Source: Candidatus Multivorans sp.
Lineage (GTDB): Bacteria; Acidobacteriota; Thermoanaerobaculia; Multivoradales; Multivoraceae
Length of the DNA stretch: 64,000 nt
Assembly (NCBI GenBank): GCA_965247095.1
Contig: OZ251997.1
Coordinates: 192,001 to 256,000, forward strand
Direction of reading: 5' to 3'
The notes under the pieces were generated by a model that was not told where the DNA came from, searched no databases, and saw only the letters and a program-made list of their open reading frames with translations. Each line of letters begins with the position of its first letter. The stretch's first letter is position 1. Of the stretch, positions 9,041-59,057 are shown piece by piece. The position numbers were made by a program, and so were the translations under genes.

Positions 9041-9409
9041 TCACTCTCCGCCGGCCACAGCGCCGGACTCGCCGGGCGTCGGTGCAGTGGCCGCGTCGTC
9101 GTCGGACACCTCGAGTTCGAGCGCCAGACCGTGACCGTGGGCCGCCTTGACCAGCGCGTGCGCGATGGCGGGGCTGGTGAAGAGCAGGAAGACGACCACC
9201 AGGAGCAGCTTCACGGTGACCATGGACAGGCCGCCCTGGAACATCAAGGCCAGGAGCATCAGGCCGGCGCCGGCGGTGTCCGTGACCGACGCGGCGTGGG
9301 TCCGCTGGTAGAAGTCCGAGAACCGGTGCAGGCCGATGCCGCCGACGATGCAGAACAGCCCTCCGATCACCAGCAGGACCACGGTCACTACATCGAGCGC
9401 GCCATTCAT
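9041..9409 (-). CDS. mrpG: Na+/H+ antiporter subunit G
   Basis: Start MNGALDVV at 9409; GGIGLHRFSDFYQRTHAASVTDT, TSPAIAHALVKAA. Confidence 0.9.
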   Translation of the reverse strand: MNGALDVVTVVLLVIGGLFCIVGGIGLHRFSDFYQRTHAASVTDTAGAGLMLLALMFQGGLSMVTVKLLLVVVFLLFTSPAIAHALVKAAHGHGLALELEVSDDDAATAPTPGESGAVAGGE

Positions 9410-9837
9410 GGGGCGTCCGCCGGCCGGTCGTTGCGGGCAAGACCACGGTCGTCGCTGGCGAGGCTGCGGTCGTCGCGGGCCAGCGCCCCGAAACGCCTCG
9501 CAGGCTCGGAGTTTCGGCCCATCCCGTCCTCGCTGTGACCCCGCGTTTCGGAACTTGCTGCGCCGCGTTCCGAAGCGCTGGGTCCCAGCCCCCCGAAGCG
9601 CGCGAAGCGCAGCACCGCGAGCGTGCCGGTGAAGTTGACCAGGGTGTAGACGAGGGCGAGGTCGAGCCACTCGGGCCGCTCCATCAGGAAGCCGCTGACC
9701 GCGATCAGCAGCACCGTCTTGGTGCCGAACATGTTCACCGCCAGGATGCGGTCGAACACCGTGGGGCCGATGGCGGCGCGGGCGAGCGCCAGGAACATCG
9801 TCACCACGATCGCGGCCATTGCCGCCGTGTACATCAC
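9406..9837 (-). CDS. mrpF: Na+/H+ antiporter subunit F with C-terminal extension
   Basis: GPTVFDRILAVNMFGTK, DLALVYTLVNF. Confidence 0.88.
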   Translation of the reverse strand: MMYTAAMAAIVVTMFLALARAAIGPTVFDRILAVNMFGTKTVLLIAVSGFLMERPEWLDLALVYTLVNFTGTLAVLRFARFGGLGPSASERGAASSETRGHSEDGMGRNSEPARRFGALARDDRSLASDDRGLARNDRPADAP

Positions 9838-10325
9838 GTCGACCGTCCCTCGAGGCGGAGCACGTCGCGGTCCATCGAACCGCCCACAACATCCGCCTCA
9901 CTCTCCGCGTCGAGGGCGTAGACGAGCAGCTCGCCGTCCCGCAGATCGAGCGTGATCGTGCCAGGGGTCAAAGTGATGAAGTTCGCGTACAGGACCTGGC
10001 CGAAGGACGTCTTCTGACTGGCGCGAACGCGTCTGAGCCGGGGGTGGAGTTTGCTCCCAGGGGCCAGGATCAGGCGCACGACGTGGAAGTTCGCCATGGC
10101 GACCTTCGAGACGAAGGCGATCAGGAAACGCGGCAGCCGCAGCCAGGCCCAAGGGTGAAAGAACTCGGAGTCGCCGCCCGCGGCCCGGTCGAGTGCCAGG
10201 TACAGGCGCCATACGAACAGACAGGAGACCAGCCCGAAGAGCGCGATCAGCCACTCGTTGAGGGTGTAGTGCCCCGACAAGGACAGCCACGCCGCGGCCA
10301 GGAGCAGGAGCACGCCCCACCTCAT
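9834..10325 (-). CDS. mrpE: Na+/H+ antiporter subunit E
   Basis: WLSLSGHY, YANFITLTPGTITL. Confidence 0.9.
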   Translation of the reverse strand: MRWGVLLLLAAAWLSLSGHYTLNEWLIALFGLVSCLFVWRLYLALDRAAGGDSEFFHPWAWLRLPRFLIAFVSKVAMANFHVVRLILAPGSKLHPRLRRVRASQKTSFGQVLYANFITLTPGTITLDLRDGELLVYALDAESEADVVGGSMDRDVLRLEGRST

Positions 10326-48964: not shown

Positions 48965-50044
48965 CTAGTCGCCGCTGCCGGCGCCGGTGCTGGTGGTTTC
49001 GCCGGACCGGATGTCGTCCTCGAGAATCCTCGCGCCGCGCAGGGTGTTGCCCATCGCGTAGTTGCCCTCGTGGCAGGCGTACTCGTAGACCCGCTCGGGT
49101 CTGTTCCGCCAGATGTACTCACCGGACCAGGGGGCTTCCCAGGTAGCCGGATCGTCCATCGTGAAGTGGTAGAGGATGTCGCCGTCCGGCTGGAGTGTGA
49201 GACGTTCGGTGACGTGGAGATCCCGCGTTGCCCCGCGCAGGAACCCATCGGATCGGAAGTGGCCCGAGTCGATGACCAGGGTGTCGCCTTCCCACCAGCC
49301 GATCGAGTCGCCCAGCCATCTGCGCTCCTCGGGGCTCGGGTGCTCCGAGTTCAGGCGCACGATCCGGGCGTCATGGACCATCTCGATCAGGATCATGATG
49401 TGGTCCTCGGTCTGCACCACCCGCTTGTAGTTGTTGTAGCCGCTAGGGAACGTCGGCGTGGCGCCGGTGAAGCCGAGGATGCAGCGTTCGTTGATCGGCA
49501 ATGACTCGGGGCCGTCGTAGGGGCCCGGGCCGTCGTGTTCGAGCCACCAGGCGGTGCCTTCGTTCGGGCGCCGCAGCTTGGCGCGCTCCGCCGCTCTCGC
49601 CTTTCTTGCCTCGGTCGTTTCTGGAATTCGGCCGTTCGGCGGGTCGATGATGATCGAGGTGCGGAACTTGCCGTCCACTGCGAAGGCCTCGGTGCCGCGG
49701 TCGAGCCAGAAGCTGTTGTAGCCGCCCACATTGCCGGCAGCGCCCGGGGACCCGTCTCCGCCTTCCGGCGGCGCTTCGCGGTTCGGGTCGGAGACCTGGT
49801 GGCGCTCGGCGCGGGCCTTCGCCGCGTCGGCCGCGATCTTCTCCGCCTCTTCCCTGGTCAGGAGCAGGTTGTCGCCGTACTCCTCCGGGCGCTGCAGCGG
49901 CGTCAATGTCGCGGCGTCGTAGGTGCCGCTCAGGTCGGGCTTGCCGTCGGCGGCGCGCTTGATCTCGGTCTCGGCCGCGAGGGCCGGCGCCGCGAGCAGC
50001 AGCACGAGGATGGCGGCCAGGGCCGCTGGGAATCGGACTCTCAT
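48965..50044 (-). CDS. secreted hypothetical protein, paralog 1 of 3
   Basis: Start MRVRFPAAL; GKPDLSG, RTSII.DPPNGR, GDSIGWWEGDTLVID, YEYACHEGNY. Confidence 0.85.
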   Translation of the reverse strand: MRVRFPAALAAILVLLLAAPALAAETEIKRAADGKPDLSGTYDAATLTPLQRPEEYGDNLLLTREEAEKIAADAAKARAERHQVSDPNREAPPEGGDGSPGAAGNVGGYNSFWLDRGTEAFAVDGKFRTSIIIDPPNGRIPETTEARKARAAERAKLRRPNEGTAWWLEHDGPGPYDGPESLPINERCILGFTGATPTFPSGYNNYKRVVQTEDHIMILIEMVHDARIVRLNSEHPSPEERRWLGDSIGWWEGDTLVIDSGHFRSDGFLRGATRDLHVTERLTLQPDGDILYHFTMDDPATWEAPWSGEYIWRNRPERVYEYACHEGNYAMGNTLRGARILEDDIRSGETTSTGAGSGD

Positions 50045-50133
50045 TCTGCGTCCTCCTGTTTCGACTGGAAGCCGAGAGTCTAGCGGAGGGCCTCCAGGTG
50101 GGGGCGCCACCCGAAGTCGCTCAGCGAGCGCGT

Positions 50134-50916
50134 CCCGACGTTCTCGGAGGCAGTCGAGCGCGTGATCGAGATGCACCGCGCTTCTTGGCGGGCAGGCAGC
50201 GCATCGGTGCGGGAGGTGGGCGATCCCGCAGGGCCGCCGGGCCGACAACCCCGCAGGGGACGCGGATGCCGCGGCGTTGCCGCGAAACGCTGCGCAGCCG
50301 GAGCACTTCCGTGCGCTGCCACATGGCGAGTTGGCGGCGGTGCTGGCGAAGTTGCGGCAGTCGGAGGCCGGACCCTGTGCGCGGCTCTCCCTGGAGCTCC
50401 TGGTCCTGACCGCGGCGAGAACAGGCGAAGTCCGGCACGCGCGGTGGGTTGAGATTGACCGCGCCGGAAGGGTCTGGACGATTCCGGCCTCACGGATGAA
50501 GGCCAGCCGGGAGATCGCGCGTTCCGCTGGCTCGACGGGCGCTTGAAGTGCTTGAAGAGGCCAGGGACCTTGGGGACGGCTCGCCATTGATCTTCCCCTC
50601 GGCGCAGACAGGCAGAACCCTGAGCTCTGGCGTGTGGTGGAAGCTCCTGCGCCGGCTTGACCTCGATTGCACGGTACATGGATTCCGCAGTTCGTTTCGC
50701 GACTGGTGTGGGGAGAATGGCGTGGCGCGCGAGTTGGCCGAGGCTTGCCTCGCGCACGCAGTGGGCAACCAGGCGGAGGCCGCATACGCCCGTTCCGACT
50801 TGTTGGAGCGGCGTCGTCGGGTGATGGGGGAATGGGATCAATACGCCACCGGCGAAGGACCGCGCATCCCCGATCCTGGCCGCCCCGGATCGAGTCGTAC
50901 CATTTCTTCGCGGTAG
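50134..50916 (+). pseudogene. P4-like tyrosine integrase remnant
   Basis: Fragments PTFSEAVERVIEMHR, HFRALP, LTAARTGEVR, WTIPASRMK; frameshift near 50520; then HGFRSSFRDW, LAH, AAYARSDLLERRR. Confidence 0.88.
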
Positions 50917-51058
50917 GCGATCAAGTTCCGCCCGCGTCGGTTTCCCATCTACAGAGTTCGAGTGCCGGTAGAGGGTGCTTCGCTGGCCTGAAGGTACACA
51001 GGGGGCCAATACGACGATAACCTACAGAATTGCTGCGGTGGCGGACGAGTAGTCGCCC

Positions 51059-52528
51059 TCAGATTTCGTATCTGTCCCATTCGATGCTTCGCCAACCATC
51101 CAGTCTCAGCCAGTGCCTGAGTTCCCTACTTCTCTCCAAGACAAGAGCTTTGTCCACGCCAATCTCGTCCAGCACACAGAGCTTCAATAGCGCCTCGCCC
51201 TGTTTCCATAGTCTGTGCAGGCTGACATCTGGATCGCCGTATCCTCCTGCACCATGAGAGATCGGGTTCCTTGCGCTTACGAGTTCGTGGACAAGTTTCT
51301 TGATTTGCCCACTCGTCATCACCTCAGACAGGTTTTCCCGGGCGTGGTCCAGCAGCCTTTTCCGCAACGGAGGCTTGAGTAGGTAGGGTCCCATCGTGTT
51401 CGTCCACCAGCCTCTGTGGCGATCTGGAACGACATCTGTTGTCGCGTTGACGATCTCCTGGAACTCGTCCTCTGTCATCACAGGCTGTGGACCGTTCTTC
51501 GCTCGGTGCAGTTCCTCAAGCGCTTGGACTACGAGAAGAAGGAGATTCTCCAGGTGGTCCTGGCCCACGGCTGAGGCTCGAAGTCGCTGCAGAGCTGACG
51601 GTGCCGATTCATAGAGTGCGAACCAAGCTCGAATGACATCTTCGGGAGAGTTGACAGCCTCTTCCCGTGCCATGAAGAGAGCATGTAGGCTTGGCGAGTC
51701 CTTTGGAGCCTGGGTGTCCGATGGGCGGATTCCATCTTGATAGAAGACGTTCAAGTATGCCTCTTGGTCGCTCTCGGTTTCTGCTAGGGCTGTGATGGAC
51801 TCCACGCAGCATCTCGCACCTAGGCCGAAACAGAGGAGTTCTTGGAACACCCTCAGTTGTCTGAGGAAGTCGTCTAGCGGTGCCTCGGCAACGCGTTCGA
51901 TGACTACGACAGCGGATTGACCGATCTTGACGGCGTGACCCTTTTCGATGCGGCGAGACACTCCGGTTCGAGTGGCCTGCACCTTGATCCTCCAGTCACC
52001 CACCTCTACCTGTATCGGTTCTGGCAGCCTAGTCCTGAACGCGATCTTAGGAGAACCAAGTTCATAGTCCTCCTTCCATCGGATGGCGTCTGTGAGCCAG
52101 CCGATGAGGCCATCCACCCCTGCGCTAATGCTGGTGACGGTTAGGGGAGTTTCTGGGTCGACATTCTCGTCATAGGACGCACCGATGCAGCACCGCCTAG
52201 CATGGTAGGTGATTCTTGACGAGATGTTGGGGGCGAAGGAGGTCGATCCTCCTATAGCACGGCAGTCCTCAAAGATGACCCTCTTAGTCAGGTCGAACTC
52301 TCCGGTGAGGAGGGGCCAATCGCGCGCGCCACGGGTGACCTCGTAAACGCCGAAAGGCTTCTTGTCATTGGGTAGCACTAAGACACCGGCGGCGAACTTG
52401 TTCATGGCCGACACTTCGAGTCGTATGTCGCCAGAAGTCGAGATGGTGAAGTTGCCTGGAAGTCGTTCACTAGGTCGGTCTGGCGGCCAGAAGTAGCCGG
52501 TTCCCGTAACTGGAGCATTCAGTTTCAT
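51059..52528 (-). CDS. ApeA-like HEPN domain protein (putative anti-phage RNase)
   Basis: N-terminal GYFWPP...LPG.FTI pattern, C-terminal RxxxxH (RNPISH); visibly lower GC than the flanks. Confidence 0.75.
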   Translation of the reverse strand: MKLNAPVTGTGYFWPPDRPSERLPGNFTISTSGDIRLEVSAMNKFAAGVLVLPNDKKPFGVYEVTRGARDWPLLTGEFDLTKRVIFEDCRAIGGSTSFAPNISSRITYHARRCCIGASYDENVDPETPLTVTSISAGVDGLIGWLTDAIRWKEDYELGSPKIAFRTRLPEPIQVEVGDWRIKVQATRTGVSRRIEKGHAVKIGQSAVVVIERVAEAPLDDFLRQLRVFQELLCFGLGARCCVESITALAETESDQEAYLNVFYQDGIRPSDTQAPKDSPSLHALFMAREEAVNSPEDVIRAWFALYESAPSALQRLRASAVGQDHLENLLLLVVQALEELHRAKNGPQPVMTEDEFQEIVNATTDVVPDRHRGWWTNTMGPYLLKPPLRKRLLDHARENLSEVMTSGQIKKLVHELVSARNPISHGAGGYGDPDVSLHRLWKQGEALLKLCVLDEIGVDKALVLERSRELRHWLRLDGWRSIEWDRYEI

Positions 52529-52679
52529 TTGTCGTCGTTCCCCTTGGTTTCCTTCAGTCGGGAATTTGGATGCCCACCGAGGTCCTAACGTTGCGTAGGG
52601 CAGTGGAGAGGACACGAGCGGCTCCTTGAACTCTTGCCAGGGGAAGAGACCAACACCGAACAAACAAGACAGCGGCTGT

Positions 52680-53642
52680 CTAGCTGGAGTCTGCTGTCTG
52701 CTGTTCGATGGTCTTCTCCATGATCAGGCCTAAGTCCTGCGCCGCTCGGTCGAGGACGATGGTCAGGTGCTTTAGGTCCCACCCCATGTAGGCCGCAAGT
52801 GGTAGAAGCGAGTCTCTGAGGGCCAACAGTGCCAGCGCCGTCAGCATGGCCATGTTCTGTGGGCGGAACGTCTTGACAGCGATGGCGCCTTCGTCGTCGC
52901 CTTCCACGACTTCGTAGCACCATCTTCGAAGAGCTAAGGTTTCGGCATGGGCTAAGGCCGACAGTAGTCTGTACTCGGCGTCTTGGCCGAGGGACTCACG
53001 GATAGCATCAGTTGGTCCTGGGACGGCTTCGGCTATTCGGGTTATCCGGTCTCCTTTTCGTCCCACGGAATAGCCAAGCTCTTCTGCTTGGCCAGCGATA
53101 TGTTCGACTCGCTCAGTGTAGAAGCTGGCGGAGTCCTCGTCTTTGCGGGCCTCGGCCAATCTTCGGTTCTGAACCAGTTCCTTGTGGCGCAGCGCGTAGA
53201 CACGGCCCACTCTCTGCGTCGCGTCGATCTGTGGATCAAGAAGCCAACGGACTCTAGCGCTTGGCTCTAGCATCGCCCGCACACAGTTGCATGAAGCAAT
53301 CATCTGAATCGGTGGAGTTAGCGCTTTGGCGAGCAGGCCACCGTTTTCCCCTACGGCTTCAAGGAAGTGCCAAGCGAACGAGATGGCCGTTCTTACAGAT
53401 TCGTCGCGTGGCGCAGTGGATTGTTCGACGAATCCAGGCGAGTCTTGTGCTGGCTGTCTGAACTGGATGCGCACGAAGGCGTTGGTCGCGGCCAAGACTT
53501 GCTGCAAGACTGAGCGCAGTGCGCCGATAATGGGAGGTGTGGGGTCTACTGGAGTGGGGTTGCGCAAGTCTCCGTGGATTGCTTCTAGCGTGAGCGCGAT
53601 TCGTTCGAGCAGTTGAACCTGCTGGTGTCCATAGGGGTCCAT
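52680..53642 (-). CDS. DUF5677-like helical protein
   Basis: VRAMLE...RWLLDP and YRLLSALAH motifs; lower GC; start MDPYGHQ inferred. Confidence 0.55.
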   Translation of the reverse strand: MDPYGHQQVQLLERIALTLEAIHGDLRNPTPVDPTPPIIGALRSVLQQVLAATNAFVRIQFRQPAQDSPGFVEQSTAPRDESVRTAISFAWHFLEAVGENGGLLAKALTPPIQMIASCNCVRAMLEPSARVRWLLDPQIDATQRVGRVYALRHKELVQNRRLAEARKDEDSASFYTERVEHIAGQAEELGYSVGRKGDRITRIAEAVPGPTDAIRESLGQDAEYRLLSALAHAETLALRRWCYEVVEGDDEGAIAVKTFRPQNMAMLTALALLALRDSLLPLAAYMGWDLKHLTIVLDRAAQDLGLIMEKTIEQQTADSS

Positions 53643-53720
53643 TCTGGGCCGAGCCTCTTCATCAATGGTTGTGGGGCTAGCGCCCGCCTTTGGAAGCGAG
53701 CGACTTCGCGCGAGGCCCAC

Positions 53721-53793
53721 TGGTCCTGACGGGACTCGAACCCGCGACCTCCTCGTGTGACCGAGGTGCTCTATCCGGCTGAGCTACAGGATT
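53721..53793 (-). ncRNA. defective tRNA-Val(CAC)-like element
   Basis: Minus strand reads AATCCTG TAGCTCAGCCGGATAGAGCA CCTCG GTCACA CGAGG AGGTC GCGGG TTCGAGT CCCGT CAGGACC A. D and T arms are canonical; the anticodon loop has 6 nt; the acceptor stem has 2 mismatches. Confidence 0.8.
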
Positions 53794-53949
53794 AGGACCA
53801 GTGAGGTCAAAGCGGACTGGGCGATCGTTGCGATCTCCAGTCGGCTCGACATCACCTCTAAGGGCGGCATCGTAGCTGAGTTGCAGGACTTGTTCAACTG
53901 TTCACGTCGTGATGCGCGGGGAAGGTCTCGCGGTCTGCTGCGCGCCTTT

Positions 53950-54845
53950 CGCCGCATGGCCTCCTCGAGGCTCTTGACGTCCCCGTAGACGTCACGGTCG
54001 AGAAGCGACAGGAAGAAGCGGAAGTTCTCGGGATCGCCCTTGTGTGGCGTGGCCGTCATGCGGAGTTAGTGGTCGGTCCGATCCGCGAGCGCTTCGCCAA
54101 GCTGGAAGGCGAGGGTCTTCTTCTCATGGCTGTAGGCGCTCATCTTGTGGGCCTCGTCGACTACTACGAAGTCCCAGCGGCTGTGCAGCAGGCTCTCCCT
54201 GGCGTCGTGGATGCGAGAGATCCACGAAACCGAAGTGACAACCTGGTTCTTCTCCTGCGAAGAATTCTGCCCATACTGGCTGCGGACGGTCTCGCCCCGC
54301 ATGACGTCGAACTGCTCGCGGAACTTGTCCTTCTGCTCGCGCTGCCATTGGAACGTGAGGTTCGCCGGTGCCACGATCAGGGTTCGCCGGACCAGGCCGC
54401 GGATCTTCAGCTCCTTGAGAAGGAGGCCCGCCATGATCGGCTTGCCGGCCCCCGAGTCGTCGGCGAGCAAGAAGCGGATGCGTGGGAGCCCGAGGAAGTA
54501 CTCGTAGACCGCCTCGAGTTGGTGGGGGAGTGGGTCGACGCGGGCTGTCGAGAGCGAGAAGTAGCGGTCGTACTCGTAGGCGAGTCCCAGACGCTCCGCC
54601 TCAATGCGAAGACGGAAGCGAAGAGGATCTCCGTCGAAGGGCTCGGTGGCTGGCGAGATTGTGAGTTGCGAGATTTGCGCCTCGCTCAAGATCGGATCGT
54701 GGACTTGACCCGTGCGGAGGCCTTTCCCCAGCAGCTTGACCAACTCGCCGACCGGGATAGTCGTAGTGACCTCGACCGGCTCGGGGAGCAAGGGTCCGCG
54801 CACCACGACACCGGGAGAAAGCTCTTCGAACGCGGCTTGAGTCAC
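53950..54845 (-). pseudogene. SNF2/RapA-like helicase remnant (DrmD-like)
   Basis: PLPHQ, LLADDSGAGKP (decayed motif I), QWQRE, DEAH, in-frame TAA at 54066-54068, then MTATPHKG; truncated before the C-terminal helicase domain. Confidence 0.85.
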
Positions 54846-55262
54846 CGTTGCTTCGCTGGGGGCGGTTGAACAGACGTAGTTCGGCTGCTACGGCAGCGCG
54901 AAGACGAAGATGTTGTTGCCGGAGCTGGGACGCACTTCGGAGGAGTCCGCCCGAGAGCGCCGACGACCGGGATCCCCGGCACCGTCGTCAGAAGAGCGGC
55001 GACAGGCTCCGCCAGCGAATAGAGCTTTGGCGGCGCATCTTAGCCGAGGAGTTCCGACGCTGTAGTAGTCGGCATCGTCCAGCGCCACGCGGGTGATCTC
55101 CTCGTCGTTCCGCAGCACGACATGCTGGTTGGCGAAAGCCGGATGGGACCAGAGGACCAGACGGTCGCTCTGCCCGTGCCGCGGGGGTAGGATTTGTTCT
55201 ACGGGCTCCCTAGCTGCACGGGCACTGGCCACGAATGTCTTCGCGAGAGGAGCCGGAGGAAG

Positions 55263-55478
55263 ATGCAGGAGTACACCGCGATCGTCAAGCGGGCCGGCGA
55301 CTGGTGGATCGGCTGGATCGAAGAAGTGCCGGGCGTGAACTGCCAGGAAGGGAGCCGCGAAGAGTTGCTGGAGACCTTGACCATCACGCTGAGTGAGGCG
55401 CTGGAGTTCAATCGCCAGGCAGCGCTGGCCGCGGCGGGTGAGGGCTACACGTTGGAGAGGATCGTTGTCGCCACATGA
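55263..55478 (+). CDS. hicB: HicB family antitoxin
   Basis: YTAIVKRAGDWWIGWIEEVPGVNCQEGSREELLE; SD GGAGGA. Confidence 0.85.
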   Translation: MQEYTAIVKRAGDWWIGWIEEVPGVNCQEGSREELLETLTITLSEALEFNRQAALAAAGEGYTLERIVVAT

Positions 55479-55515
55479 GGCGCTGAGTTCTTCCGCGGCA
55501 TCTCGTCCTCATACG
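55475..55515 (+). pseudogene. HicA toxin 5' remnant
   Basis: ATG overlapping the hicB stop reads MRR*VLPRHL, resembling the HicA start MKRRxLxRHL. Confidence 0.45.
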
Positions 55516-55711
55516 GTCCCCAAACAGCAAGGGCTGCCCCGAAGAGCAGCCCTTGAGCCGACAGCACGCTGCCGGCGGGTATCTGCGCAGAATCTACCTT
55601 CGCCCGGCAGACGATGCAAGCGACACGGCCGCCTGACAGACGCTCCTTCCCGTCACCGGGGGGAGAGGGGCGGTGCCGCCAGCGGTCACGCAGGGCCGCG
55701 GCGGGGGACCG

Positions 55712-56791
55712 CTAGTCCCCGCTGCCGCCGCCGGTACTCCCGGCTTCCGCGGCCGCCGCGTCGGCCTCGAGAATCCGCGCGCCGCGCAGCGTGTTGCCCA
55801 TCGCGTAGTTGCCCTCGTGGCAGGCGTACTCGTAGACGAGCTCCGGGCGGTTCCTCAGGATGTACTCGCCGGACCAGGGCGTTTCCCAGGTGGCCGGATC
55901 GTCCATGGTGAATTGGTAGAGGATGTCGCCGTTCGGCTGAAGGGTGAGGCGTTCGGTGACGTGAAGCCCCTGGGTCGATCCGCGAAGGAAGGTCTTGGGG
56001 TGGAAGTTCACGGAGTCGATGACGAGGGTGTCGCCTTCCCACCAGCCGACCGAGTCGCCGAGCCACTTGCGCTCTTCGGGGCTGGGGTGCTCGGAGTTCA
56101 GGCGCACGATACGGGCGTCGTGGACCATCTCGATCAGGATCATGACGTGGTCTTCGGTCTGCACGACGCGCTTGTAGTTGTTGTAGCCGCTCGGGAGAGT
56201 CGGCGTGGCGCCGGTGAAGCCGACGATGCAGCGCTCGGTGACCGGGAGCGACTCGGGGCCGTCGTAGGGGCCGGGGCCGTCGATGTCGAGCCACCAGGCG
56301 GAGCCGTCGTTCGGCCGGCGCAGCTTGTCGCGCGCCGCCCTCTTCGCCTTCGCGGCCTCGGTCGTTTCGGGCATACGGCCGTTCGGCGGGTCGACGATGA
56401 TCGAGGTCCGGAACTTGCCGTCGACGGAGAAGGCCTCGGTGCCGAAGTCGAGCCAGAAGAAGTTGTACCCGCCGACGTTGCCGGCGCCGCCTCCGGAACC
56501 GTCGCCGCCGGGAGGCGGCGCTTCGCGGTTGGGATCGCTGACCTGATGGCGTTCGGCGCGGGCCTTCGCCGCGTCGGCCTTGATCTTCTCGGCCTCTTCC
56601 CTGGTCAGGAACAGGTTCTCGCCGTACTCCTCGGGCCTCTGCAGCGGGGTCAGAGTGGCGGCGTCATAGTTGCCGGCCAGGTCGGGTCGGCCGCTTGGAG
56701 TGCGCTTGATCTCGTCCTGAGCTCCCGCAGCGGGCGCCGTGATTAGCAGAAGAACGATTGCGGTCAGGGCCGCGGGGATTCCGCTTCTCAT
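55712..56791 (-). CDS. secreted hypothetical protein, paralog 2 of 3
   Basis: Start MRSGIPAAL; same length (359 aa) and motifs as paralog 1. Confidence 0.85.
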   Translation of the reverse strand: MRSGIPAALTAIVLLLITAPAAGAQDEIKRTPSGRPDLAGNYDAATLTPLQRPEEYGENLFLTREEAEKIKADAAKARAERHQVSDPNREAPPPGGDGSGGGAGNVGGYNFFWLDFGTEAFSVDGKFRTSIIVDPPNGRMPETTEAAKAKRAARDKLRRPNDGSAWWLDIDGPGPYDGPESLPVTERCIVGFTGATPTLPSGYNNYKRVVQTEDHVMILIEMVHDARIVRLNSEHPSPEERKWLGDSVGWWEGDTLVIDSVNFHPKTFLRGSTQGLHVTERLTLQPNGDILYQFTMDDPATWETPWSGEYILRNRPELVYEYACHEGNYAMGNTLRGARILEADAAAAEAGSTGGGSGD

Positions 56792-56813
56792 TCGGTGTCC
56801 TCCAAGGGTTCGA

Positions 56814-57893
56814 TCAGTCACCGCTGCCCGCTCCGGTGCTGGCGGTCTTGCCGGACAGCACGTCGGACTCGAGCACCCGGGCGCCGCGCAACGTGCCGCC
56901 CATCGAGTAGTTGCCTTCGTGGCACGCGTACTCGTAGACGTTCACGGGGCTGCGCTTCCAGATGTACTCACCGGACCAGGGGACGTCCCAGGTTGCCGGA
57001 TCCTCGATCGTGAACTGGTAGAGGATGTCGCCGTTCGGCTGCAGCGTGAGGCGCTCCGTGACGTGGGACTCCTGGGTGGCGCTGCGCAGCACCGCCTTGG
57101 GATGGAAGTTCCTCGAGTCGATGACGAGGGTGTCGCCTTCCCACCAGCCGACCGAGTGGCCTAGCCACTTCCGCTCCGTAGGATCCGGATGCTCGGCGTT
57201 CAGGCGCACGATGCGGGCGTCGTGGACCATCTCGATGAGGATCATGACGTGGTCCTCGGTCTGCACGACGCGCTTGAAGTTGTTGTAGAGGCTCGGGAAG
57301 GTCGGCGTGGCGCCGGTGAAGCCGACGATGCAGCGCTCGGTGACGGGCAGCGTCTCGGGGCCGTCGTAGGGACCGTGGCCGTCGATCTCGAGCCACCAGG
57401 CAGAGCCGTCGTTGGGGCGCCGCAGCCGGGCGCGCTCAGCGGCCCTCGCCTTGCCGGCCTCGGTCATCTCCGGCATGCGGCCGTTCGGAGGATCGAAGAT
57501 GATCGAAGTACGAAACTTGCCGTCGACCGCGAATGCCTCGGTCCCGGTCTCGACCCAGAATCGGTTGTAGCCGCCCACGTTGCCGGCGCCGCCCGTCGTC
57601 CCGTCGCCGCCGGCTGGCGGCGGCTTGCGGTTCGGATCGGAAATCTGGTGCCGGTCGGCGGCGTACTGGGCCGCCTCCGCCTCGATCTTCGCGGCGTCTT
57701 CCGGAGAAAGGAAGAGGTTCTCGCCGTACTCCTCGGGCCGCTGGAGCGGTGTCAGGGTGCCGGCGTCGAAGGTGCCGGTCAGGTCGGGCTTACCGTTGGC
57801 GGCACGCTTGATCTCGCCTTCGGCGGCTAGCGTCGGCGCCGCGATCAGCAGCACGACGATGGCGGTCAGGGCCGCGGGGACTCGGAGTCTCAT
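56814..57893 (-). CDS. secreted hypothetical protein, paralog 3 of 3
   Basis: 359 aa; same motifs, including YEYACHEGNY. Confidence 0.85.
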   Translation of the reverse strand: MRLRVPAALTAIVVLLIAAPTLAAEGEIKRAANGKPDLTGTFDAGTLTPLQRPEEYGENLFLSPEDAAKIEAEAAQYAADRHQISDPNRKPPPAGGDGTTGGAGNVGGYNRFWVETGTEAFAVDGKFRTSIIFDPPNGRMPEMTEAGKARAAERARLRRPNDGSAWWLEIDGHGPYDGPETLPVTERCIVGFTGATPTFPSLYNNFKRVVQTEDHVMILIEMVHDARIVRLNAEHPDPTERKWLGHSVGWWEGDTLVIDSRNFHPKAVLRSATQESHVTERLTLQPNGDILYQFTIEDPATWDVPWSGEYIWKRSPVNVYEYACHEGNYSMGGTLRGARVLESDVLSGKTASTGAGSGD

Positions 57894-57955
57894 TCGGTGT
57901 CCTCCTTCTTTGACTGGATTCGGGGAGTGTACCGGAAGGCGGCGCGCCTTCGGCG

Positions 57956-59005
57956 TCAGGGCGACGGCTTGGAGCGCTCGATCCGCCGCCTCGGAAGCGG
58001 CCGTTCCGGCACGTCCTCGAGCAGGCCGCCGTGGCCGAGCGACGTGATGTCGCGGCGCGTCAATCGATCGCCTGCCAACAGGCGGGGCAGCACCAGGTCG
58101 ACGATGTTCCGCTTCGGACTCCGCGCGCAGCCGGGGGCGCCGAGAACGGGGGTGCCGCCCAGTTCGGCGAGCAGGAGCAGGTTGCCGGGATCGACCGGGG
58201 CGCCGTAGCAGATCACCGTGCCGCCCGCGGCCTCGATTGCGCTCGGAGCCAGGTCGTGGCGGTCCTGGATGGCCGTCTCGCCGGCCAGCACGACGAGATC
58301 GACGGTGGGCGCGAGCCGGGCCGCGGCGAGGGTCAGGCTTTCCACGCCCCGGTCGCCGTCAAGGGGTACGAAGCGGACCTCCGAGAGCTCGCTGTTCAGC
58401 AGCTCGAGCCGCTGCCTGAACGCGTTTTCGAAGCCGTGGACCAGGCGGTCCCGGCCCTCGGACTGGCCCCTTCCCACGGTGCCCGAGACGATCAGGCCGG
58501 CGCGCCGCGGCGCCAGCCGGTCGACCCGGATCACAGGTGCTGCCGCGACTCTCTCGGCTGCGGCCACGGTCTTTTCGGGCACGGCGTAGGGGAGGATCTT
58601 GGTCGTTGCCACCATCTTGCCGGCGCGGGCCACGCTGTGATTCGGGAGCGTGGCCAGGGTTACGCCCTCGCAGTCGTTGATCCGGTCCAGGGCTTCGGCG
58701 TCGACACGCAGAACGCCCAGCTCGCGGGCGTGGAAGTTCACGCGGCCCGTGGTCGAGCCGCGCCGGGTCAGTCCCGCTCCGGCGACCACCTCGGCGACTC
58801 GCCGCGCGGCTTCGTCCTCGTCGACGTCTCCCGGTTCGAGACGGGCCGCGAACACCCTGTCCCGGCCCAGATCAGCCAGAAGCAGAAGTTCCGCCTCGCC
58901 CAACGCCCGGCCCTTGCGTAGCACGCGGCGTCCGGAGTCGTCATGGACGTTGTGCCCCAGGATTGTCCCCAGGGCGTCGCCAAGCGCGGTGGTTTCAAAC
59001 TTCAT
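57956..59005 (-). CDS. molybdopterin-binding (MoeA-like) protein
   Basis: Start MKFETTAL; LRKGR.L, D..ED.AA, TGRVN, GAPVDPGNLLLL, GAPGCARSPK, GHGGLL. Confidence 0.85.
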   Translation of the reverse strand: MKFETTALGDALGTILGHNVHDDSGRRVLRKGRALGEAELLLLADLGRDRVFAARLEPGDVDEDEAARRVAEVVAGAGLTRRGSTTGRVNFHARELGVLRVDAEALDRINDCEGVTLATLPNHSVARAGKMVATTKILPYAVPEKTVAAAERVAAAPVIRVDRLAPRRAGLIVSGTVGRGQSEGRDRLVHGFENAFRQRLELLNSELSEVRFVPLDGDRGVESLTLAAARLAPTVDLVVLAGETAIQDRHDLAPSAIEAAGGTVICYGAPVDPGNLLLLAELGGTPVLGAPGCARSPKRNIVDLVLPRLLAGDRLTRRDITSLGHGGLLEDVPERPLPRRRIERSKPSP

Positions 59006-59057
59006 CGACCGGTGGACGCGGCGCGTCCTCGGCGTCAACTCGCGTTCTCGCCGAGCC

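Follow-up and report, generated by a model that had tools for sequence, protein, structure and literature searches.

This locus raises the question of whether a transfer RNA (tRNA)-like sequence and the two genes that follow it on the same strand form one system. The locus lies in a stretch of 64,000 nucleotides (nt), hereafter the window, of a Candidatus Multivorans sp. genome (G000, 4.6 Mb; contig OZ251997.1, positions 192,001 to 256,000 of the forward strand), and positions given without a contig name are those of the window. The two genes encode a DUF5677-like protein (P0001) and an ApeA protein (P0002). An earlier note, made from the sequence, had proposed that the three make up one undescribed module headed by a tRNA mimic, and had named a decayed tRNA or attachment (att) scar as the simpler alternative. 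Our analysis found the simpler alternative to be the best-supported reading: the tRNA-like sequence is probably a relic, either of a decayed tRNA acquired horizontally or of an att site. It would mark the edge of a ~1.4-kb DUF5677-like cassette that landed beside a pre-existing ApeA gene and truncated an older helicase system.

We therefore begin with the tRNA-like sequence itself. ARAGORN called a single tRNA-type gene in the window, at 53720-53794(-), under the label 'tRNA-???' and with a 2-nt anticodon. The Rfam tRNA model RF00005 matched 53721-53793(-) at 44.0 bits (E-value 1.1e-7), above its gathering score of 29. The D arm and the T arm are canonical. The anticodon loop, GUCACA, has 6 nt instead of the 7 nt that hold a 3-nt anticodon, and is one base below the Rfam model. 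Five of the seven acceptor-stem positions are paired, the top two pairs being non-canonical in the Rfam alignment (A·C mispairs at 1:72 and 2:71), and the 3' end reads ...CAGGACC-A-GTG, with a discriminator A and no CCA. The earlier note had described this cloverleaf with its short loop, mispaired acceptor top and missing CCA, and ARAGORN and Rfam recovered each feature where it had been placed. The same is true of the perfect 10-bp inverted repeat said to enclose it (CACTGGTCCT 53803-53794 / AGGACCAGTG 53727-53718, minus strand), which forms the outer helix in the minimum free energy (MFE) fold and reaches 12 bp there with one G·U pair. The MFE of the 101-nt stretch was -44.2 kcal/mol (z -2.74), a value equalled by 2 of 200 shuffles.

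The 5' side of the element reads GGTCCT-AATCCT-G. The GGTCCT in CACTGGTCCT looks like the original 5' acceptor strand, with 6 inserted or duplicated nt (AATCCT) between it and the D arm. Taking out the middle 6 bases would yield a perfect 7-bp acceptor stem, GGTCCTG/CAGGACC, and one C added to the loop would yield a Val-CAC-type arm. Because two single-step repairs restore a normal tRNA, we infer a once-normal tRNA that suffered two lesions. The element is far beyond chance as a tRNA-derived sequence, yet plainly abnormal as a tRNA. About 65 nt upstream of it, a weak -10/-35-like sequence, TTGAAC-17-TACGAT, was seen by eye (8 of 12 positions, under the scanner threshold), and the sigma-70 scan returned no promoter-like sites in the region. 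Tandem repeats of the kind that make up antitoxin-RNA arrays in type III toxin-antitoxin (TA) systems were sought in 50700-54000 and 49500-57000, and no tandem family was found.

The element is foreign to the tRNA set of its host. Of 47 Rfam tRNA hits in G000 it is the lowest, the second lowest scoring 54.2 bits, and all 12 genuine host tRNAs that were checked separately scored 61.6-74.3 bits. CCA is encoded in 44 of the 53 ARAGORN calls of the genome, so that neither the score nor the 3' end of the element is host-like. A search of G000 for a parent tRNA returned none, the best global match having 56 of 75 identical positions and the best BLAST match 82% identity over 56 nt. In a phylum-wide DNA search of 401 genomes (threshold E up to 1e-6; G049 counted in these tallies), 178 genomes matched the tRNA-like sequence, and the best non-self match was an ordinary tRNA-Arg(CCT), at 84% over 66 nt. 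The exact 21-nt anticodon-arm pattern had no match in viral contigs. As to the host set in general, 47 tRNAs are backed by Rfam vs the 53 ARAGORN calls; several long or odd calls (e.g. at 1199612, 1885943, 2994288, 3535281 and 3999825) are probably false positives, and G000 also has tRNA-SeC and a transfer-messenger RNA (tag ANDNLALAA).

The intact D and T arms, together with the passed gathering score, would agree with a working though unusual tRNA that serves in frameshifting, as a suppressor, or as a nuclease-resistant spare as in some phages, and there are reports of phage tRNAs that escape anticodon nucleases through changes in this loop. We consider such a role very improbable, since the 6-nt loop has no standard 3-nt anticodon register, the acceptor top carries the two A·C mispairs, the processing sites would be hidden inside the long alternative helix, and CCA, which most host tRNA genes encode, is missing.

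We then compared the ApeA gene with its counterparts. P0002 contains ApeA_NTD1 (PF18862, 4.8e-24) and a C-terminal HEPN_Apea domain (PF18739, 8.9e-13), and was recognised by PADLOC as PDC-S58 (5.2e-22). Its HEPN motif is the RNPISH pointed out in the earlier note, with R420/H425 invariant in 8 homologues; by sequence P0002 is too divergent for a match in the PDB. According to a 2026 preprint (10.64898/2026.01.26.701840), ApeA is a single-protein abortive-infection system: its HEPN domain cleaves the anticodon loops of host tRNAs, the protein assembles into ring oligomers, and small ligands, among them 5'-phosphorylated deoxydinucleotides, activate it. One gene suffices for its function in E. 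coli, and the phage-triggered anticodon-loop cleavage and the ring oligomer are established for E. coli homologues only.

Three congener loci, fetched after a DNA search of 31 genomes of the genus, were aligned in detail. The G422 locus contains a type I restriction-modification system and an apeA gene with 82% DNA and 78% protein identity to P0002. Homology between the window and G422 ends exactly at the ApeA ATG (window 52528) and picks up again at 55185; in between, G422 has 290 nt of unrelated guanine-plus-cytosine (GC)-rich DNA that replaces P0001, the tRNA-like sequence and the helicase stump. The 19.5-kb G422 locus (L019) gave no tRNA call with ARAGORN. ApeA is thus present at the same site without P0001 or the tRNA-like sequence, and is therefore independent of both; in this comparison it appears as a stand-alone gene without a conserved partner.

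The G422 orthologue also bears on the proposal that the ApeA anticodon nuclease has this RNA as its decoy, antitoxin or leader, which it largely refutes and to which we give hardly any credence. In its favour, ApeA enzymes cleave anticodon loops, the anticodon loop of the element is altered, and the element shares its strand with ApeA and precedes it by 1.2 kb. Against this, the single apeA gene works in E. coli (10.64898/2026.01.26.701840), and a gene, a hairpin and a 150-nt gap stand between the element and ApeA. Indirectly, close ApeA homologues (79-81% identity) fall in clusters whose longest contigs (4,535-275,453 nt) coincide with none of the longest contigs in the clusters that contain the P0001 homologues (5,007, 7,446 and 57,840 nt).

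The surroundings of the element point to a composite origin of the locus. A low-GC block extends over ~50.9-54 kb, with 56-61% GC vs 68% in the flanking genes and in the genome. The two low-GC genes that had been reported ~80 nt downstream of the element on its strand are indeed there: the first begins 78 nt away, and the GC content is 0.58 for the P0001 gene and 0.56 for apeA, against 0.68 for the flanking genes. Immediately upstream of the element is an SNF2-type defence helicase reduced to a stump, which matches HmaA (2.2e-57) and also DrmD and BrxH, with an in-frame TAA at 54066-54068; its helicase similarity stops near 53940, 135 nt from the inverted repeat. The whole region is framed by tandem paralogous host genes of ~370 amino acids (48965-50085; 55712-59038; loci L019, L020 and L021). 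In G373 the flanking paralogues are adjacent, which represents the empty site, and in G421 the locus holds a Gabija pair (GajA 1.6e-208, GajB 9.3e-172). By these gene contents, the locus is a variable defence hotspot between paralogous host genes. A protein search of 57 genomes of the taxonomic family found P0001 relatives in two others besides G000, at 41-42% identity, and the P0001 cassette is specific to G000 among the family genomes searched. The stretch is present in 5 sequencing runs from 2 studies, none of them recorded as RNA; one 4,650-nt contig with 0 differences is the assembly itself, and a second sample gave short identical pieces.

We propose that this defence-island hotspot brings together three unrelated pieces as a mosaic, and that they are not one system. 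The first piece would be ApeA, a stand-alone HEPN anticodon-nuclease abortive-infection gene that needs no partner, and the second the ~1.4-kb low-GC cassette carrying the DUF5677-like gene. The third, at the outer edge of the cassette, would be a foreign Val-CAC-like tRNA-derived sequence with at least two lesions: an acceptor stem (GGTCCTG/CAGGACC) split by the 6-nt insertion, and an anticodon loop that has lost 1 nt. This relic, presumably without function, would be either a pseudo-tRNA or a leftover tRNA-gene attachment site that travelled with the cassette, and the cassette would have recombined into an older HmaA/DrmD-type helicase gene and truncated it. The idea of one undescribed module finds no support: ApeA is already characterised, its G422 orthologue has neither the RNA nor the DUF5677-like gene, and relatives of P0001 occur without ApeA.

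The identity of P0001 was established through its relatives. P0001 itself matched no Pfam family at E up to 1, PF18928 included, and gave no PADLOC hit. The DUF5677-like label holds by transitivity, because 16 of 60 phmmer relatives match PF18928 (best E 8e-7); in the nearest Atlas clusters, 13-16% of the members carry PF18928. Both gene identities proposed earlier, ApeA by its Pfam domains and DUF5677-like by these relatives, are thus confirmed. An exhaustive phmmer search with P0001 returned 601 cluster representatives at E up to 0.001, 322 at 1e-10 and 6 at 1e-30. The family is commonest in Actinomycetota, and only three proteins are more than 60% identical to P0001 (63-76%). The R..LE and Y..LS..AH motifs read from the sequence before are present and conserved in the family, every position of R122..LE126 and Y224-R225..S228..H232 being invariant or at least 90% conserved among the 60 relatives. 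Within the second motif, R225 (at least 90%) and the invariant H232 are spaced as R225-x6-H232, which fits the HEPN R-x4-6-H pattern at the motif level, position in the fold aside.

An AlphaFold model of P0001 built on the 60-sequence alignment was confident and all-helical, with a predicted local distance difference test score of 91.6 and a predicted template modelling score of 0.85. Foldseek with this model returned nothing at E up to 0.001, a PDB sequence search with the family profile gave no match, and hhalign of the family against the ApeA HEPN alignment gave a probability of 0.4. P0001 may have an HEPN-like fold. Terminator-like sites such as the hairpin that follows the P0001 stop are weak evidence alone, since 4 were found in the region vs 3.9 expected from shuffles. 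No fused forms (735-2095 amino acids) were found in the P0001 subfamily. P0001 relatives were also sought in viral contigs, plasmids and phages, with no match; genome contigs gave one weak hit and one metagenome scan none. PF18928 had no match in E. coli K-12 MG1655. In an enterococcal defence screen, five open reading frames (ORFs) of nine were reported active, and the tested DUF5677 ORF was not among these five (PMC12632615). A full-text literature search for DUF5677, within the texts open to it, found no further functional characterisation beyond that screen.

We next asked what accompanies DUF5677-like genes elsewhere. Nine loci other than the window, each with at least 200 nt upstream of the gene, were evaluable: L034 (G260), L035 (G353), L036, L037, L015, L016, L046 (G410), L047 (G494) and L009, of which L036 and L037 are two further family copies within G000. 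L010 and L011, identical in sequence, are two metagenome copies of one 40% relative; they end 54-120 nt upstream of the gene and were excluded from the tRNA-neighbour count. With ARAGORN and a permissive Rfam scan at E up to 5, a tRNA-type neighbour was found in one of the nine loci (L034), on the opposite strand, and the expectation that a tRNA-like sequence would recur upstream of P0001 relatives was not borne out. As 8 of 9 loci have no such element, a cis-acting leader RNA is not a feature of the family. ApeA was found in none of the fetched flanks of 10 distinct loci (11 locus ids), and the DUF5677-like and ApeA pair is therefore not conserved. The neighbours vary, and include insertion sequence (IS) transposases, a large serine recombinase, an SNF2-NOV_C helicase with a deaminase, a TIR gene and DUF4238.

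Several of these loci have features of their own. L036 (G000:C1:3428503-3429303), a 30% paralogue, is flanked by IS elements and has a TIR-domain gene nearby, and L037 (G000:C1:471836-472312) is a true PF18928 match at 40.3 bits. In L046 (403-2736) and L047 (475-3317), which belong to two congeners, the 41-42% relatives of P0001 are convergent to a DUF4238 gene and may form a conserved pair with it; the G410 copy has an N-terminal DUF1232 segment, as does P0008.

The exception, L034, deserves closer description. Its DUF5677-like gene lies at 9477-10295(+) with 51% GC, and the tRNA-type sequence at 9234-9311 (G260:C1), 165 nt before the start and on the opposite strand. This second element scored 46.3 bits as Val-GAC, with an 8-bp acceptor stem and no CCA, and its anticodon arm is mispaired according to ARAGORN or has an 8-nt loop according to Rfam. 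In 8 of 8 same-genus relatives of G260, homology from the aminotransferase side ends 50-70 nt before the element and the element is absent; for 5 of the relatives the locus was fetched, and ARAGORN called no tRNA in any of them. A search of G260 for a parent found no second match. IS copies follow the element. In the order of G260, 2 of 76 genomes match the P0001 family, both among the loci already sampled. The elements of the window and of L034 are unlike in strand, spacing and sequence; the best local alignment between them (score 24) covers a generic T arm only. G260 has roughly a dozen tRNA hits below 53 bits in 6.2 Mb; with one of nine loci counted, the window itself set aside, we estimate the chance probability of the L034 coincidence at ~0.5%-5%, depending on how strongly both features concentrate in islands, which is suggestive but not decisive. 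Elsewhere in G260, eight low-scoring tRNA hits (39-53 bits) lie within 6 kb (G260:C1:42767-48751) and may be a mobile-element tRNA array.

Two readings fit L034: elements that integrate into tRNA-Val genes and drag att tRNA copies along, or a trans-acting RNA partner. On the latter, the tRNA-like RNA would be a tRNA-Val mimic that cannot be charged and would serve the DUF5677-like protein, not ApeA. Acting in trans, it would be the decoy, antitoxin or specificity element of an HEPN-fold RNA-directed protein. Two observations speak for it, namely that the non-homologous G260 cassette also bears an orphan aberrant tRNA-like sequence absent in 8 of 8 congeners, and that the only tRNA hit below 50 bits in the 4.6 Mb of G000 lies 78 nt from one of its three DUF5677(-like) genes. 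Since the two elements differ in strand, spacing and sequence, a cis leader is excluded, and only a trans-acting function could be common to both. These differences, the eight loci without an element even at Rfam E up to 5, the hhalign result against ApeA HEPN and the enterococcal ORF that is not among the five reported active of nine (PMC12632615) make this partnership unlikely in our view. Its general form is a still longer shot: DUF5677-like proteins would be HEPN-fold RNA-directed proteins, and some of their cassettes would include an orphan tRNA-Val-like RNA of their own, whose anticodon arm is deformed (6-nt loop here; 8-nt or mispaired in G260) and which acts in trans as decoy, antitoxin or specificity factor, a pair not yet described.

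We return to the decayed tRNA or att relic. Several points weigh against it. No integrase or recombinase domains were found in the scanned ORFs of 48.9-56.8 kb. A 25-nt pattern of the 3' end, searched with up to 3 mismatches for a second att site, hit only itself, and the search for other att repeats gave only chance-level matches of 10-11 nt (E at least 1.1). Remnants of attP or attR are usually 3' fragments, and the relic here is a full-length cloverleaf. The flanks lengthen the acceptor helix by 4-6 bp past the tRNA body, which simple decay does not predict. The L034 cassette is unrelated to the P0001 cassette, yet is also edged by an orphan deformed Val-type tRNA-like sequence; pure coincidence makes this recurrence unlikely, though a shared tRNA-Val integration habit would account for it. 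Finally, the locus sample leaves out the 3 closest P0001 homologues, P0003, P0004 and P0005 (63-76% identity).

Table 1. Positions of the features discussed, in window coordinates.
Feature	Position	Strand	Basis or remark
ApeA (P0002), 489 amino acids	51059..52528	minus	Pfam, PADLOC
Weak terminator-like hairpin with T-rich tail	52667..52681	minus	directly after the P0001 stop, then 150-nt gap to ApeA
P0001, 320-amino-acid DUF5677-like protein	52680..53642	minus	ORF, phmmer, Pfam of relatives, AlphaFold
Inverted repeat, 3' arm AGGACCAGTG	53718..53727	minus	equals 3' acceptor strand, discriminator and 3 trailer bases
Degenerate tRNA-like sequence	53720..53794	minus	ARAGORN; Rfam RF00005
Inverted repeat, 5' arm CACTGGTCCT	53794..53803	minus	sequence; outer helix in MFE fold
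SNF2-type defence helicase stump (HmaA/DrmD/BrxH-like)	53940..54887	minus	profile positions 4 to ~301 of 1060-1176
Segment absent from G422	52529..55184		P0001, tRNA-like sequence, helicase stump and 300 nt of other DNA
Left flanking host gene, tandem paralogue family	48965..50085	minus	genus comparison
Right flanking host paralogue	55712..56821	minus	in G373 directly adjoins the left paralogue

Other parts of the hotspot are shared with congeners. Window 54951-55620 is common to G421 and G422 at 84-91% and includes a 95-codon frame at 55191-55478(+) with no Pfam or PADLOC hit. A HicB-like identity of this ORF was considered and dropped, as both searches were without a hit. The GC-rich stretch 50197-50855, between the left paralogue and ApeA, recurs at 84-89% in four listed congeners (G419, G407, G402 and G389). 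The G402 copy is found across the paralogue array, implying that the hotspot was rearranged.

The locus can thus be annotated in a routine way: a variable defence hotspot contains an ApeA defence gene of a known kind, a cargo gene of the DUF5677 type and a pseudo-tRNA. It illustrates that gene adjacency in defence islands does not make a system. What interest remains lies in the orphan Val-type tRNA-like sequences with deformed anticodon arms beside two unrelated DUF5677-like cassettes. Should this recurrence persist when more loci are sampled, DUF5677 would gain its first functional handle, be it a tRNA-Val-targeting integration habit or a tRNA-mimic partner RNA.

Among known arrangements, the element most resembles the tRNA-gene att sites and pseudo-tRNAs at island borders. 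Known att sites in tRNA genes are used by tyrosine integrases. In the window and in G260 alike, a tRNA-derived sequence stands at the border of accessory and older DNA and is foreign to the host tRNA set; the window differs in having no integrase and no matching direct repeat, in its full cloverleaf and in the extra complementarity of the flanks. PrrC and RloC are anticodon nucleases, and ToxIN is a type III TA system with an RNA antitoxin. The locus recalls them in the anticodon-loop-targeting HEPN nuclease near the element and in the idea of an RNA that restrains a nuclease, and departs from them in having no tandem-repeat RNA array and no conserved RNA-nuclease linkage; a further difference from ToxIN is that ApeA is switched on by small ligands and not released from RNA. 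P0001 shares with DUF5677 (PF18928) its all-helical structure, the family size of ~290-320 amino acids and relatives that sit on IS, recombinase and defence islands, and differs in falling below the Pfam model at E up to 1, as a sister group with three relatives above 60% identity. With regard to ApeA (Ec1ApeA/Ec2ApeA; PADLOC models PDC-S58 and Cas13-ApeA), P0002 adjoins a DUF5677-like gene and a pseudo-tRNA, unlike the published systems, and agrees with them in its two-domain architecture, in its R-x4-H motif, in an orthologue that stands alone in a congener, and in its setting among other defence genes.

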